A stretch of 64,000 nt of DNA, from the sequence record PV636258.1. The stretch is one strand, 5' to 3'. The position numbers and the translations under genes were made by a program. The stretch is from a phage. Below the pieces are notes generated by a model. It ran no database searches. It saw only the letters and a program-made list of their open reading frames with translations, and had not been told where the DNA came from. Shown one piece after another: positions 3,093 to 29,433 of the stretch; the first letter of the stretch is position 1, and each line of letters begins with the position of its first letter.

Positions 3093-5369
3093 TCAAACAA
3101 CACAGGTGTCACAAATTTCTTCAACTTGTTTCAGCTCCTCGTCTTCCTTGGAGTCTTTGTTGGTGTTGTAATACAGAGTTTTACCACCCCACATGTAGAA
3201 AGACAGAATATCCTGCATCATAAGAGAGCGCGGGATCTTGCCTTCTGGATATTTCTCTGGGTCATACCATGTGTTGGTGCTGATGGATTGATCTACCCAA
3301 CGTTGTATGACCGCCGCCGTCTTCAGGTATTCAATACAATCCAGATTCCATTTCAGGTCATATAGAGGACCAAGGGTTTCTACATCCGGAACGATCTGTT
3401 TATAGACGCCGTCCTTGCTGCCTTTGATGCTGATGAGACCTTTTGGTGGCTCTATACCGTTCGTTGCGTTCAGCACCTGAGAGGAGCTTTCAGTTGGTGC
3501 TACGGCTAACAACGTGGCGTTACGGATCCCATACTCGGATAGGTTCTGCTTCAGACCTTCCCAGTCAAGACCATAGGCTTGCCCAACAGGCTTTTTGCCA
3601 TTGGGTAGGATGTCCAGCGGGAGAGGCTGAAGGTCGGCTGTTACAAATCCGGAATCATGGATAGTTGACTTCTTACAAGATCCGAAACGCATGGCCAGAC
3701 GGTTGGACGCTTTGACCAAGTAGAAATGAAGATGCGCCATCCACTTGTCTAGAAGTTCTAATCCGATAGGCGATCCATAACCCGTGAAATTCTTGGCCAG
3801 GAAATGTGCGACGTTGACGATACCGATACCCAGAGGACGATATTCTTCTACGGCCAAACGGGCTTGGCGAGCTGGATAGTCCTGATATTCCAACAACATA
3901 TCCAAAGCTGAAACCAGAACGAAAGCAACATCTTCCATTTCTGTTGGATCTTCAAATGCCGTCAGGTTAAATGATGCGAGTGTACATAGGGCAATGCGAC
4001 CATCTTCATCATCATACTGTTGGAACTCACGAGTCGGGAGCGCGATTTCTAAACATAGATTAGAGCTATAAATCGTGTCCAAATTGAACGGACTATACTC
4101 GTTCATGTGATCAACGAATGCGATGTAGATCCGGCCAGTGTCAGAACGCTGGTCTAGTAGCATTTGGAACACTTCTTCAGCTTGCAGCTTTTTGGAACGA
4201 CATAATCCGGCGTCGGCGGCCTTGATCATATTGTCGTACATTTCGCGGAATTTATTGACGTCTGCGAAAAATGCTTCATACATTTCGCGGTTGTCTTTTG
4301 GATCAAACAGGTATAGAGGCTGTTTGTTCACCAGGCGCTCGAACATGACGCGGTTAATCTGAATCCCATAGTCGATACGGCGTTCACGGTTCTCTTCCAA
4401 TCCACGGTTGTTTTTGAGAACAACGACATCATCAAATTGATAATGCCAGATGGGAACATAGCATGTTGCCGATCCACCACGGATACCGCCTTGAGAGCAA
4501 GACTTCAGGGCACCAGTCAAATACTTGATGAATGGAACCAGACCTGTATGGACCATTTCCCCTTTACGGATAGGGCTACCGATGCCACGAATTGCCCCAA
4601 CATCGAATCCGATGCCAGCACGTTTGGAAACATAATCCACGATGCTTTTCGCAGTGGCATTAATTGAGTCCAATGTATCACCAGTTTTGATCAATACACA
4701 AGAGCTGAACTGTCGGGTCGGGGTGCGGACGCCGGACATAATAGGTGTTGGAAGACTGAATTTGCCTGTACTGGCGTATTCATAGAACTTCTTCACCATT
4801 GTCAGTCTGCTTTCTTTATCCCACGCTGAGAATAATGCCATAGCGATTGCCATGTACATGACTTGAGGGGTTTCATAATACACTTTGCTGTCAGAAGAAC
4901 GATCACGCAAAAGATATTTTTGAGTCAGCTGGCCCATTGCTGCCCAAGTGAAATTCTTGTCGCGTTTGTGGTTGATGACTGTGTTAAGTTCTTCGAATTC
5001 TTCTTTAGAGTAAAGTTCGAGGAATTCGCGGTCATAAACACCCAGCTTGGTGTTCTTTGCAAAGATATCCAGCAAATGAGGTGGCTTGTATTGACCATAG
5101 ACAACCTTTCGCAGGTCATACGACTTCAGGCGGGCAGCAACATATTGATAATTGGGTTTATCAACAGAAATTAAGGTGGCCGCAGCTTGGATAATGATAT
5201 CCTGAATGCGTTCGGTTTTCATGTTATCGGTGAATTGAATCTTCGATGCAGCTTCCACCTCAGACACCGATACTCCTTCAAGGCCGTCACATGCTCGTTC
5301 AATAACGGTATGGAGTTTTTCAATGTCAAAGGGGACAGAAGATCCGTCCCGCTTTATGATGTTAATCAT
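3093..5369 (-). CDS. nrdA: ribonucleotide reductase class Ia alpha subunit
   Basis: Near-colinear with E. coli NrdA (ATP cone MINIIKRDGS..., SLPTPIMSGVRTPTRQFSSCVLI, NLCLEIALP); start moved to ATG 5369 with GAGGAT SD rather than track start 5420. Confidence 0.95.
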   Translation of the reverse strand: MINIIKRDGSSVPFDIEKLHTVIERACDGLEGVSVSEVEAASKIQFTDNMKTERIQDIIIQAAATLISVDKPNYQYVAARLKSYDLRKVVYGQYKPPHLLDIFAKNTKLGVYDREFLELYSKEEFEELNTVINHKRDKNFTWAAMGQLTQKYLLRDRSSDSKVYYETPQVMYMAIAMALFSAWDKESRLTMVKKFYEYASTGKFSLPTPIMSGVRTPTRQFSSCVLIKTGDTLDSINATAKSIVDYVSKRAGIGFDVGAIRGIGSPIRKGEMVHTGLVPFIKYLTGALKSCSQGGIRGGSATCYVPIWHYQFDDVVVLKNNRGLEENRERRIDYGIQINRVMFERLVNKQPLYLFDPKDNREMYEAFFADVNKFREMYDNMIKAADAGLCRSKKLQAEEVFQMLLDQRSDTGRIYIAFVDHMNEYSPFNLDTIYSSNLCLEIALPTREFQQYDDEDGRIALCTLASFNLTAFEDPTEMEDVAFVLVSALDMLLEYQDYPARQARLAVEEYRPLGIGIVNVAHFLAKNFTGYGSPIGLELLDKWMAHLHFYLVKASNRLAMRFGSCKKSTIHDSGFVTADLQPLPLDILPNGKKPVGQAYGLDWEGLKQNLSEYGIRNATLLAVAPTESSSQVLNATNGIEPPKGLISIKGSKDGVYKQIVPDVETLGPLYDLKWNLDCIEYLKTAAVIQRWVDQSISTNTWYDPEKYPEGKIPRSLMMQDILSFYMWGGKTLYYNTNKDSKEDEELKQVEEICDTCVV

Positions 5370-5453
5370 AGCGATCCTCGGTTTGTGTTTATGCAGGCTG
5401 TTATTATACACCGCCTCCATGGATTGAAGGCGGCGGGGAAGTTCGTGTGGTAT

Positions 5454-6293
5454 TTAAATGTTGTACAGGTCGTTAATTTCTAACATCAGGCGGGTGAAGT
5501 TGCCGCGACCATTACGATCAGACTTATCGAATTCGATGATGCTGAATGGTTGAACCCACTCTGGATATTCATCTCCGATTTCTACACCGTCAATTTGCAA
5601 GGAACCTGTTTCCAGCTTATTGTTGAAGTCTTTAAAGGAATCCACATACGTCTGTAACGCACTGTCACGCAGTCGCTTGTTAGACTGTTTGATATCTCCA
5701 TTCACGAAGATGTACGAAGAATCTGAAGCACGAGTCAACAAGTTTTTCAGCTGCTCCATATCACATTCCTGTGCTTCTTCAATAATCAGGAAACAATCAT
5801 CGAAAGTCATCCCCTTTACAGTTTCAAGGTCTTGAATTTCTATGATGCGTTTCTCCCACAGATAGTTGAAGAAACCGTCGGAACCCGTATCTGTTTTGAG
5901 AACCTTTTTAAATGTCTGTATGAGCGGCATCAAATAAGGCATCAGCTTTTCATATGTGTCACCAGGCCGGAACCCTGCTGTGGTACCAGTTGGAAGGGGA
6001 GAACGTGTGATGATGATCTTGTTGATTGTTTTGTCTATCAGATGTTTTGCTGCAGCAGATGCACCGCAATAGGATTTGCCTGTACCTGCCGGACCGATTG
6101 CGATAGTGAGGTGTTCGTTTAATGCGGATTGATATGCGAGGTTCTGATTTTCTGAGAGGCCATTGAACGGAGCAATTTTGAAATCACCTTTAGAAAATTT
6201 CATCCAGTCTTCTTCTTTCTGGATGGTGTCTTTCTTACGAGCAGATTTTGTCTTCGCTGGCTTCATGGATACAACTTTAGACGCAGATTGCAT
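5454..6293 (-). CDS. phoH: PhoH-like ATPase
   Basis: Walker A GPAGTGKS, PhoH-like layout; track start is GTG at 6329, ATG 6293 with AGGAAGG SD preferred. Confidence 0.85.
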   Translation of the reverse strand: MQSASKVVSMKPAKTKSARKKDTIQKEEDWMKFSKGDFKIAPFNGLSENQNLAYQSALNEHLTIAIGPAGTGKSYCGASAAAKHLIDKTINKIIITRSPLPTGTTAGFRPGDTYEKLMPYLMPLIQTFKKVLKTDTGSDGFFNYLWEKRIIEIQDLETVKGMTFDDCFLIIEEAQECDMEQLKNLLTRASDSSYIFVNGDIKQSNKRLRDSALQTYVDSFKDFNNKLETGSLQIDGVEIGDEYPEWVQPFSIIEFDKSDRNGRGNFTRLMLEINDLYNI

Positions 6294-24815: not shown

Positions 24816-24850
24816 AAAAAGCCGAGGCATTAACCTCGGCTTTCTCTTTT
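24816..24850 (-). terminator. bidirectional rho-independent terminator
   Basis: hairpin gccgagg/cctcggc flanked by A-run and T-run. Confidence 0.6.
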
Positions 24851-25263: not shown

Positions 25264-26055
25264 TTATTTGCCGACGTTCAGAATTTTACCTGAGCCGGAT
25301 CCGTCAACGATCAGAGTACATTTCCCGCTGTTGGCGCAAGATTGCAACACCATGTTATATTCGTGTTGTAAATATTCAGATGTCAGAGATGTCGTCAGTT
25401 TCTGATTCGCCTTGGCTTCTTGGTCGCGAATTTCAACGTTCTTTCTTGCTGTATCCAAACGTTTGTCAGCCATGACATTATCACGGATAGATTGCTCAAT
25501 CGAAGGATCTGTCAGCGCCTTTTTCACCAACACGCGTGTGATTGTGAACATGCCAGGCGCAGCAGTTTCCAATTGCTGCTGGGTGCGTTCCTTGATCATC
25601 TTTTCTAACTCAGCCCGTTGGGTGTGAATTGTCATAGAATCCAAAGAAGAAACGGCGTCCATCGTTGAGGATGCTGCGGCGGTTTTAACCAGGTTGAATC
25701 CCACCGCTATCGTGCCGTCACCGAGTTCAGCGCTCTGACCTGCAAATTTGGTATGGAACCAAGGAACCTTCGCGACGTTCGGTGTGTAATAAACGTCCAC
25801 ATCCAGATCTTCCAAGGTCAGGTTGTCTTTGGCCTTTGGCGTCATTTTCGTCAGACTCACGACGGCTTCTTTAGTCGTATAGACATCTACACTTGAAACG
25901 AAACTGGTGTAGATACCTGCGGTTACAGGGTTCATGTCCACTTCACCCCATTGGGTTCGAACACCGACGTTTCCTTCATCGATAACACCGCCGCAGCCTG
26001 AAAGAAGGCTTGTTGCTAGGACCATAATTGCGCCAAATACCAGTTTCTTGAACAT
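25264..26055 (-). CDS. SPFH (band-7/stomatin-prohibitin)-domain lipoprotein
   Basis: lipobox LLSGC after hydrophobic leader; SPFH-like core (EGNVGV...TKEAV...KDNLTLEDLDVDVYYT); AAGGAG SD; ATGA-coupled to upstream small membrane ORF. Confidence 0.65.
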   Translation of the reverse strand: MFKKLVFGAIMVLATSLLSGCGGVIDEGNVGVRTQWGEVDMNPVTAGIYTSFVSSVDVYTTKEAVVSLTKMTPKAKDNLTLEDLDVDVYYTPNVAKVPWFHTKFAGQSAELGDGTIAVGFNLVKTAAASSTMDAVSSLDSMTIHTQRAELEKMIKERTQQQLETAAPGMFTITRVLVKKALTDPSIEQSIRDNVMADKRLDTARKNVEIRDQEAKANQKLTTSLTSEYLQHEYNMVLQSCANSGKCTLIVDGSGSGKILNVGK

Positions 26056-26264
26056 CAATGTACTCCTTCAAAAATGTAAATATAAGCACCCAATGTGAGT
26101 GCAGTTATTGTAACCGAAGAAATCAGCAGTAGGAAAGTTACTCTCACCCGTTTGCGCCAACGTTTACTTCGGTAGATTTTAGTCTCTTTCAAGTATTTGA
26201 AAAAGAAAAATAAAATGAATGTTGAAATTACGAATATGAACAGATAACGGATTAACCCGATCAT
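26055..26264 (-). CDS. small two-helix membrane protein (69 aa)
   Basis: two hydrophobic segments separated by a basic loop (RSKRWRKRVR); translationally coupled to SPFH gene. Confidence 0.5.
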   Translation of the reverse strand: MIGLIRYLFIFVISTFILFFFFKYLKETKIYRSKRWRKRVRVTFLLLISSVTITALTLGAYIYIFEGVH

Positions 26265-26581
26265 ATTTCCCACCCTGTGCTACGCAGATGATCAAAATAA
26301 TCGTTGAGTTCGTCAATATCTTCGATATCAACCCAACGATCATCCAGTCCCATATCATTTAGATCTTCTTCAGTCAGATCATGTTGATAAATCTGAATGC
26401 CCGAAGCATTACAATAATCCGGCTTGATATTGTTGTTGAACTGGAACAAATCATAATCAGCCAGAGTATTCTTCAGGCGCTGCGCTTCTTCAAATGTTGG
26501 AACCTCAACATGAAAAGCGATCCCAGGAACCTGGGGAATATGCCAAACACGAAATTTAAGTTCAAATGGTTTATTCGACAT
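26261..26581 (-). CDS. hypothetical acidic protein (106 aa)
   Basis: ATG 26581. Confidence 0.5.
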   Translation of the reverse strand: MSNKPFELKFRVWHIPQVPGIAFHVEVPTFEEAQRLKNTLADYDLFQFNNNIKPDYCNASGIQIYQHDLTEEDLNDMGLDDRWVDIEDIDELNDYFDHLRSTGWEI

Positions 26582-28426: not shown

Positions 28427-28747
28427 TTATCTTTGATTTCCAACGAAATTAGTTGCAATTTCACGGCACATAGTCAGATCTTTAATAGTCTGTTTGCTGT
28501 TGTCTGCGGCAGATTCCATCATAGATAAATCAAGCGCATTCTCTATCTGGTCCACACTATAGAGATCAAGGCGTTTCAATTCACCTTCATAATCAGATAA
28601 AAGAATTGATGTATCCTTATCATCCGGATGGAATTGTTGATATGTAGACAACCAAGCAGCACAAATATTCAACTTACTGGCCGGAGCTGCCAATACTTGG
28701 GAAGACATGAAAGTGCACAGGAATAACAATAAGATTTTGATTTTCAT
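28427..28747 (-). CDS. secreted protein with signal peptide (106 aa)
   Basis: MKIKILLLFLCTFMSSQVLAAP signal peptide; AAGGAG SD. Confidence 0.55.
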   Translation of the reverse strand: MKIKILLLFLCTFMSSQVLAAPASKLNICAAWLSTYQQFHPDDKDTSILLSDYEGELKRLDLYSVDQIENALDLSMMESAADNSKQTIKDLTMCREIATNFVGNQR

Positions 28748-29433
28748 CTTTCGTTCTCCTTCATCATATTATCACAGTCAATTCTTGTTTGCTTGAGTTC
28801 ACGGGAAAGCCTTGGATCATCAAGATTGACAGACAAATTAGTGGAAAGATCTTTCAAACCATTCTGAACACGGTCTTCATAATAATGATCATTTTCCACC
28901 AGCCATGCTCTCAGGCCAAGGGCGCGAGTCCGCCATTCCTTTTTCAAACGTCGATCAGATTCTTGATCAGCACTGTATTCAAATACTCGGATACATTGGT
29001 TGCCATCATTGATGAGATCCAGCTGACGTCGGCCAACCTGCACACCTTTTTGTAATGCTGGAGAAGGAAGAGAACGGCACTGTCTTACGGTCATTCGTCC
29101 TTGTGTGACCATACGACCAGTCATGATGAGATCGCCAGCCTCCATGCCTCCTCGGTTAAATTCTTCGTCGTTCATATATCCTTTCAGGTTGAATGCGCCT
29201 TGCTTATATCGATTAAACTCGATACCAGCATTTACAACGGCATCTGTGACATTACCTGTGGCCCAGAGTTCAGCAAAGTTCTCTATGGAACCAGTTTTGT
29301 CTATAGCCACGGCTTGGGAGAACCCAGCACAGTAGGAAAGATCAGACCACAGTTTTTCACCTGTGGAATTCAGCTTGGCTGTGGCAGGAAGTGCCAGACC
29401 AGCCAGCACAACCGCGATGATTAAACGTTTCAT
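28744..29433 (-). CDS. secreted/periplasmic protein with signal peptide (229 aa)
   Basis: MKRLIIAVVLAGLALPATA signal peptide from ATG 29433 with AAGGAG SD; early-type promoter upstream. Confidence 0.55.
   Translation of the reverse strand: MKRLIIAVVLAGLALPATAKLNSTGEKLWSDLSYCAGFSQAVAIDKTGSIENFAELWATGNVTDAVVNAGIEFNRYKQGAFNLKGYMNDEEFNRGGMEAGDLIMTGRMVTQGRMTVRQCRSLPSPALQKGVQVGRRQLDLINDGNQCIRVFEYSADQESDRRLKKEWRTRALGLRAWLVENDHYYEDRVQNGLKDLSTNLSVNLDDPRLSRELKQTRIDCDNMMKENER

Follow-up and report, generated by a model that had tools for sequence, protein, structure and literature searches.

Why does a virulent phage carry the gene for an SPFH/Band-7 lipoprotein, and what might this protein do together with the tiny membrane protein encoded directly ahead of it? 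The question is raised by two adjoining genes in a 64,000-nt stretch of phage DNA (record PV636258.1; this whole stretch is referred to here as the window), which encode an SPFH-domain protein with a lipoprotein signal and a small helical-hairpin membrane protein. Over the 1.9-kb stretch around the pair, the sequence is the same as that of Salmonella phage Chennai (MN953776; Ackermannviridae, Kuttervirus; 100% identity), and about 170 further Kuttervirus genomes, among them CBA120, Vi01, Det7 and Sajous1, match it at 97-99%. The two genes are kept together across distant phages, and we propose, with a probability of roughly 55%, that their products build a ring or cage of SPFH protein that faces the periplasm on the cytoplasmic membrane, with the hairpin protein as its dedicated partner.

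A conserved pair of phage genes

The larger product matched the Pfam Band_7 profile (PF01145) over residues 24-209 of its 263 aa with 48.7 bits against a cutoff of 23.6 (E 1.1e-12), the same family was present in 49 of 49 homologues with precomputed Pfam annotation, and the PHROGs match was phrog_200, 'lipoprotein' (E 3e-56). Its counterparts are C152 of Chennai ('hypothetical protein C152'), orf126 of CBA120 and gp200 of Sajous1, and several GenBank records name the product 'SPFH domain band 7 family protein' or 'lipoprotein'. In the AlphaFold2 model (predicted local distance difference test score, pLDDT, 86), the SPFH alpha/beta domain is followed by a 40-residue helix, a second helix and short C-terminal strands (Table 1); as modelled, the two helices correspond to the wall helices (CC1/CC2) of SPFH cages. 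Foldseek aligned this model over 230-280 columns, with probability 1.0 and E values of 1e-12 to 1e-8, to prohibitin (8rrh), erlin (9vvj), HflK/C (9cz2, 7vhq and 7wi3), stomatin (9z7u) and QmcA-YbbJ (8z5g), and the matches also included flotillin and the major vault protein. The SPFH proteins matched in this way are ring or cage formers, and since the phage model aligns to them at full length, every known cage-building part is present in it. A profile built from 35 homologues matched no solved SPFH chain in the PDB, so the link to the solved SPFH proteins is one of fold. No match was found in NCBIfam, its HflK and HflC models included, and the same profile, run against 1.84 billion cluster representatives, retrieved 125 clusters at E<=1e-30 and 1629 at E<=1e-3. 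Judged by these searches, the protein is divergent and belongs to a small, separate SPFH subfamily.

The N-terminus of the SPFH protein, MFKKLVFGAIMVLATSLLSG followed by CGG, carries a perfect lipobox (LLSG before C21): a basic n-region, MFKK, precedes a 14-residue hydrophobic core, LVFGAIMVLATSL, and then L-S-G-C, which fits the pattern [LVI][ASTVI][GAS]C. The lipobox Cys is kept in 31 of the 35 aligned homologues, and in the wider subfamily, about 70% of the 87 representatives of full length have a lipobox.

The small open reading frame (ORF) corresponds to orf127A of CBA120 and matches phrog_11680; a longer, GTG-initiated reading of it is not kept in relatives. The hydropathy of its 69-aa product displays two hydrophobic segments flanking a strongly basic loop, KYLKETKIYRSKRWRKRVRV, and AlphaFold2 returns a helical hairpin with helices at residues 2-27 and 34-65 (pLDDT 78.5). 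A direct protein search with the hairpin found only three close clusters, so that, taken alone, it looks like an orphan, and it is the only small ORF with two transmembrane helices called within the whole window. The earlier note, drawn from the letters of this DNA, had read the pair as a phage-encoded SPFH/Band-7 protein with a lipobox (LLSGC) coupled to a two-helix membrane protein, and the profile search, the conservation of the Cys and the modelled hairpin bear this out. The hairpin gene is often missing from annotation: the Chennai record has a gap between C152 and C153, the RefSeq entry of Erwinia phage Bue1 lacks the conserved ORF at 2804-2998 of the extracted locus, and many Kuttervirus records likewise give fewer genes at this place.

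The two genes are translationally coupled. The stop of the hairpin gene and the start of the SPFH gene share TGATG, and a Shine-Dalgarno sequence, GAAGGAG, lies at 26063-26069, ahead of the SPFH ATG with a 7-nt spacer (read from the sequence). The earlier note was right about the coupling and misplaced the ATGA overlap, which joins the hairpin gene to the gene upstream of it, a homologue of P22 gp17 ('superinfection exclusion gene product 17', PF17420). With the ATGA at one junction and the TGATG at the other, the gp17-like, hairpin and SPFH genes are thus coupled three in a row, within a longer same-strand cluster. The gp17-like homologue of Erwinia phage Bue1 is a longer protein of 157 aa, and its gene does not adjoin the pair: it is found downstream of the SPFH gene, two genes away.

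What sets the pair apart is its conservation in phages. We scored all loci uniformly, a hairpin ORF being counted only when its end is no more than a few dozen bases away from the start of the SPFH gene. Of 26 loci in a phage context, 24 have such an ORF (53-80 aa, often unannotated) directly before the SPFH gene, at SPFH identities as low as 26%; among 18 homologous loci in bacterial genomes, only 2 have one (Fisher p 5e-8, a value that, like any p-value here, overstates the independence of loci that share descent). Small ORFs with two transmembrane helices are rare in the same DNA, 17 among 459 called genes, and 11 of these 17 are the partners themselves. The pairing extends from Erwinia phage Bue1, where an unannotated 64-aa hairpin ORF overlaps the SPFH start (53% SPFH identity), through 66-aa hairpin ORFs on a Burkholderia-associated contig and soil viral contigs (46-47%) and IMG/VR contigs (32-37%), to cyanophage S-CREM1 (26-27%), in which the SPFH homologue is anchored by a transmembrane helix and the hairpin partner is retained. 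A profile of the partner retrieved 12 proteins, and the three new ones that were looked up all directly precede a Band_7 gene of 263-274 aa. The partners have in common M-I-x-R/K at the N-terminus, a loop of basic character and, right behind helix 2, an acidic residue. That the partner was retained while its sequence drifted past recognition argues for selection on the SPFH-hairpin pair.

One of the three new partners, with its SPFH gene, lies in a phage-like region of Ralstonia pickettii CP104381, a 3.49-Mb chromosome record, at 5001-6036 of the extracted locus and beside the phage-type genes ThyX, RNase T and Phage_phiTE_072; a large phage may have integrated there, or the assembly may be chimeric.

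Table 1. Features of the pair and its surroundings, in window coordinates
Feature	Position	Strand	Detail and basis
SPFH/Band-7 lipoprotein gene	25264..26055	-	ATG 26055, stop 25264-25266; 263 aa + stop
Lipoprotein signal peptide, aa 1-20, and Cys21	25993..26055	-	Cys codon 25993-25995; lipobox L-S-G-C
SPFH alpha/beta domain, aa 22-182	25510..25992	-	Pfam envelope 24-209; AlphaFold2 secondary structure, high pLDDT
Long 40-residue helix, aa 184-223, and second helix, aa 226-242	25330..25506	-	AlphaFold2, Foldseek
Cys240-x5-Cys246 pair before the conserved C-terminal strand T-L-I-V-D-G	25318..25338	-	Alignment
Small helical-hairpin membrane protein gene	26055..26264	-	ATG 26264, stop 26055-26057; 69 aa + stop
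Coupling junction, hairpin/SPFH genes	26053..26069	-	TGATG, 1-nt overlap at 26055
ATGA overlap, gp17-like gene stop/hairpin gene start	26261..26264	-	Read from sequence
Upstream coupled gp17-like gene (context, outside the conserved module)	26261..26581	-	Pfam PF17420, E 9e-50
Gene labelled 'Rz-like spanin' (phrog_3843) in related records	28427-28747	-	Signal peptide ending …SSQVLA, followed by AP
Gene labelled 'i-spanin' in related records	28744-29433	-	Signal peptide ending …LALPATA, followed by KL

Neither the SPFH gene nor the presence of such genes in phages is new. SPFH ORFs of the T4-like phages 44RR, Aeh1 and RB43 were listed in 2006 (PMC1524935), and the SPFH domain of the very same gene was tabulated for PhiSH19 and Vi01 in 2011 (PMC3220722). 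The novelty is thus lower than the earlier note implied, the domain having been annotated in Vi01-like phages since that date. Our literature search found annotations and no functional study of the SPFH gene, nor any description of the hairpin partner or of the periplasmic orientation of the subfamily; the conserved phage-specific SPFH-hairpin module and this orientation, presented below, are what we add.

Orientation and the proposed assembly

In the model, the first SPFH strand (E22-25) starts right after Cys21, and in the homologues the lipobox Cys stands invariably 1-4 residues ahead of that strand, which leaves no flexible tether between the putative lipid anchor and the domain. Homologues without a lipobox carry an uncleaved hydrophobic transmembrane helix at the same N-terminal position, with Arg/Lys before it (N-in). 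Near the other end of the protein, the two Cys residues that precede the conserved C-terminal strand are both present or both absent in 43 of 44 loci, the pattern that a disulfide in an oxidising compartment would leave, and may form a periplasmic disulfide. Because the lipobox is conserved, the transmembrane-anchored members are N-in and the C-terminal Cys occur as a pair, we read the family as facing the periplasm, with the topology of HflK/C, prohibitin and erlin, unlike QmcA or the flotillins, and Cys21 as the likely site of lipidation. In the metagenome homologue P0013 (51% identity), a Trp takes the position of the lipobox Cys (LTGW), which a change of one base (TGY to TGG) could explain, as could an error in sequencing; lipidation may also have been lost naturally. 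For the partner, the positive-inside rule predicts that the basic loop is cytoplasmic and that both short ends are periplasmic.

We propose that the two genes would form an accessory envelope module of a virulent Kuttervirus, which could work as follows. The hairpin would insert into the cytoplasmic membrane, with its basic loop on the cytoplasmic and both short ends on the periplasmic side, and the SPFH gene would be translated in step with the hairpin gene. The SPFH product would be exported, lipid-modified at Cys21 by the lipoprotein pathway and seated directly on the periplasm-facing surface of the membrane. Since the SPFH domain, the long wall helix, the second helix and the C-terminal strand are all present, it would most likely oligomerise into a ring or dome of HflK/C-, prohibitin- or erlin-like topology, and the dome would separate a patch of the cytoplasmic membrane from its surroundings. 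The hairpin protein would then be either a transmembrane palisade or an enclosed client of the dome, at roughly 1:1 stoichiometry.

Several observations besides the shared descent of the loci weigh against this assembly. Bacterial homologues of the SPFH subfamily mostly lack the hairpin, which is therefore not needed for SPFH assembly as such. In a jackknife test of the hairpin, the real sequence scored 13.5 bits and the best of 2000 shuffles 12.3, a marginal homology, so that it is mainly position and architecture that speak for one partner family. The AlphaFold2 models are of single chains. The last concerns the membrane itself. By the E. coli '+2 rule', Asp at the position after the lipidated Cys leads to retention in the inner membrane and other residues lead outward (PMC4623201). 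Here, the +2 residue is Gly (Cys-Gly-Gly), and the canonical rule predicts an outer-membrane location, apart from the hairpin. Seydel et al. (1999) reportedly found that Gly, Phe, Tyr, Trp or Pro at +2 may likewise keep lipoproteins in the inner membrane, which we do not use as evidence. We nevertheless favour the outer leaflet of the inner membrane as the probable location of the SPFH protein, because the transmembrane-anchored homologues must sit in that membrane, the one in S-CREM1 keeps the hairpin, and the hairpin is itself an integral membrane protein.

The +2 residue is also the starting point of the strongest competing explanation, in which the SPFH protein would be an outer-membrane lipoprotein like T5 Llp or Cor, placed on the inner face of that membrane, that masks or immobilises a receptor or entry route and so excludes superinfecting phages; the hairpin would act apart from it as an exclusion factor in the inner membrane, comparable to T4 Imm, or would merely help in assembly. 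Early lipoproteins that exclude superinfection, such as T5 Llp, are an established phage strategy, the pair is coupled to a homologue of a 'superinfection exclusion' protein, and the same strand cluster holds, 2.4-3.4 kb upstream, the genes of two proteins with signal peptides, all of which speaks for this explanation. However, the family members with uncleaved transmembrane helices cannot reach the outer membrane and yet align from the first strand on, and the hairpin pairing is conserved well beyond the gp17-like neighbour. P22 gp17 is soluble, and the name of its family tells little about the pair. Nor did Pfam, PHROGs or NCBIfam give any similarity to Llp, Cor or Imm. We consider an outer-membrane receptor mask possible, if unlikely.

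The structural matches point to a second explanation, a mimic of HflK/C: the periplasmic SPFH cage would capture or shield host FtsH or another inner-membrane protease and so shift the turnover of membrane or regulatory proteins to the advantage of the phage. HflK/C and prohibitin are described as partners of FtsH-type AAA proteases (PMC2636767; PMC12048511), and prohibitin, erlin and HflK/C are among the best structural matches of the phage protein. Common to all of them are the SPFH domain, the long helices, the C-terminal strand and a full-length structural match, together with an orientation in which the bulk of the protein is on the non-cytoplasmic side and the anchor at the extreme N-terminus. 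The identity with HflK/C, however, is 14-18%, no better than with stomatin or QmcA, the family profile matched no solved SPFH protein, and NCBIfam gave no HflK or HflC match. Moreover, HflK and HflC are a paralogous gene pair with N-terminal transmembrane helices, whereas the phage protein comes from a single gene, would have a lipid anchor in place of the helix, has a dedicated hairpin partner, and is phage-encoded and dispensable. Membership of the HflK/HflC family was rejected accordingly, the gene being a single one with a lipobox, without an NCBIfam match to HflK or HflC or a solved HflK/C chain retrieved by the profile. A role in lysogeny has been proposed speculatively for HflK/C-like proteins in papers on Pseudomonas phages (PMC8540360, PMC4936722). 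The phage studied here is virulent and has no lysogeny decision to tune. We regard the mimic as rather improbable.

Neighbours, expression and dispensability

Genes for helicase, HU, RNase H, recombination and a late sigma factor surround the cluster that holds the pair. The T4-type late promoter motif (TATAAATA) is absent from the vicinity of the pair, the only two such sites in the window being at 49.5 kb, and scans for promoters and terminators gave weak consensus matches only. The replication and recombination neighbours and the lack of a nearby T4-type late promoter suggest early or middle expression of the pair, as read from the sequence. A perfect 10-bp GC-rich hairpin, AAAGCCGAGG…CCTCGGCTTT, at 24818-24843, between the convergent HU-like gene cluster and the helicase region, follows the HU-like gene and is probably the terminator of the cluster holding the pair. 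The protein is made, since three spectra of the Sajous1 orthologue gp200 were obtained by mass spectrometry of a CsCl-purified preparation. The 7.9-kb record OR844945.1 ('Enterococcus phage Efm 3-10') is 97% identical to the Kuttervirus region over the full query and is probably mislabelled or contaminating sequence.

Within the Ackermannviridae, the SPFH gene was found only in Kuttervirus and in the Erwinia Bue1 group, and natural variants lack most of it: in GG32, SeHz-1 and STP55, only the last 66 SPFH residues (198-263) match. We inspected the rearrangement in GG32 alone, where a single in-frame deletion joins hairpin residues 1-17 to SPFH residues ~199-263 (2145-2701 of the extracted locus) and a 102-aa ORF with a LysM domain is inserted between the gp17-like gene and the fused remnant; SeHz-1 and STP55 may carry the same rearrangement. 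Since GG32 lost both genes in one event and is yet a viable isolate, the module is dispensable.

When the neighbours at 26 loci were compared all against all, the genes that recurred beside the pair were those for RNA ligase (6 loci), RNase T (5) and RtcB (3) only; no lysis, exclusion or gp17-like gene family recurs beside it in the distant loci of this comparison, and PADLOC gave no defence-system match for the pair or its neighbours. In some bacteria, Band-7 proteins adjoin RtcB and a tRNA-like gene ('b7a-tRNA'; bioRxiv 10.1101/312249), and the bacterial Band-7 protein PaFlo8 sits in an rtc locus. Membership of such an RtcB/Band-7/tRNA-like RNA-repair system was rejected: no tRNA-like gene adjoins the pair in 23 of 24 loci or is found anywhere in the window, and a periplasmic orientation would be unfit for RNA binding. 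As a periplasmic protein could not bind cytoplasmic RNA and the tRNA-like gene is missing, we read the RNA ligase, RtcB and RNase T genes as co-located with the pair in accessory regions, possibly by coincidence.

These neighbours bear on a third explanation, that the pair times lysis, either through a holin-like or membrane-perturbing hairpin restrained by the SPFH scaffold or through a stabilisation of the membrane against premature holin triggering. SPFH proteins do regulate membrane channels and proteases, the partner is a small two-helix membrane protein, and genes labelled Rz-like spanin and i-spanin are found upstream of the pair in Kuttervirus and Bue1. This link is absent from other phages, however, in which the recurring neighbours are the RNA ligase, RNase T and RtcB genes, not lysis genes. 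The labels themselves look doubtful from the sequence of the two products, which have ordinary, cleavable-looking signal peptides without the expected transmembrane anchor and lipoprotein pair (Table 1). Class II holins are N-in and C-in with a charged cytoplasmic C-tail, and the predicted topology of the hairpin, with its basic residues in an inner loop between the helices and a short acidic C-end outside, is the opposite; no holin family in Pfam or PHROGs matched it, and a class II holin was rejected on these grounds. A two-component spanin, which combines an inner-membrane protein bearing a long periplasmic coiled coil with a small outer-membrane lipoprotein, usually inside a lysis cassette, was likewise rejected: hardly any of the hairpin protein extends into the periplasm, the lipoprotein here is an SPFH protein of 263 aa, and lysis genes do not recur beside the pair in the distant phages. 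Phages of the GG32 type, which lack the pair, are moreover viable isolates. A lysis-timing device is thus very unlikely.

Relation to known systems and possible roles

The earlier note had likened the pair to the bacterial arrangement of an SPFH gene with an NfeD-like partner. A membrane-protein gene directly before the SPFH gene is indeed the order of many nfeD-SPFH operons (PMC2636767), and the small membrane-protein gene directly upstream, expressed together with the SPFH gene, is shared with QmcA-YbbJ, FloT-YuaF/NfeD2 and PH1511-PH1510. The gene order of the comparison therefore holds, and the identity of the partner does not: no NfeD match was found in Pfam or NCBIfam at E<=0.1, and in a protein of 69 aa, with about 55 in the two helices (residues 2-65 modelled), there is no room for an OB-fold domain. 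The known operons have an OB-fold partner and a cytoplasmic SPFH protein, YbbK/QmcA-YbbJ, an NfeD-paired SPFH complex, protruding into the cytoplasm (PMC13086221), whereas the phage pair would be periplasmic and its pairing is specific to phage genomes. A genuine SPFH-NfeD operon of bacterial origin, which the gene order and the presence of QmcA-YbbJ among the structural matches might suggest, is dismissed as wholly improbable, given the missing NfeD match, the lack of space for an OB-fold, the opposite orientation of QmcA/YbbK-YbbJ and the bacterial homologues of the subfamily that have no partner. The NfeD analogy is thus positional and at most functional, in that a small membrane subunit would be made with its scaffold; by this analogy, the partner is probably built into the SPFH assembly, as in the SPFH-NfeD systems.

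Viral SPFH models are common in BFVD, including those of Vibrio, Rhizobium and Streptomyces phages and of giant viruses. These other viral SPFH/Band-7 proteins belong to different subfamilies, with 10-22% identity in structure-based alignment, and no hairpin partner has been described for them; the SPFH lipoprotein of Acinetobacter phage Ab15 (24% identity) also lacks one. The HflK/C-like protein PM0222 of a Pasteurella prophage island was found in outer-membrane vesicles and studied as a virulence factor (PMC9872710). With T5 Llp, Cor and T4 Imm/Sp, the pair has in common that accessory, non-late genes encode a lipoprotein and/or a small inner-membrane protein at the envelope of the infected cell; these exclusion proteins differ in being small and not scaffolds, and have no relation to the phage pair in sequence or fold.

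What a cage of SPFH protein with its hairpin partner would do for the phage is a matter of guesswork. The roles named in the earlier note, membrane remodelling, superinfection exclusion and control of lysis timing, are possible ones. Our first guess is a modification of the envelope in early or mid infection that protects the infection, through exclusion of superinfecting DNA or insulation against membrane-directed damage; we would place modulation of FtsH or another protease second and lysis timing third. In its specific form, in which the cage with its mini-hairpin is an infection-protecting device that blocks competing phage DNA or neutralises abortive-infection effectors or FtsH, the proposal is a speculative one in which we place little confidence.

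The pair adds a conserved, half-annotated envelope module to the Kutterviruses, which are used in biocontrol and therapy, with a hairpin gene that is absent from many records; natural deletion variants of the GG32 type exist for comparison. Small, portable and dispensable, with a tiny partner and what would be an unusual lipid anchor, this two-gene module could ease the study of cage assembly and client selection. If the pair excludes phages or alters the host envelope, it would bear on the design of phage cocktails. Should the infection-protecting cage prove true, it would for the first time give an SPFH scaffold a defined role in phage-host conflict and would offer a minimal two-protein model of how an SPFH cage selects its content.

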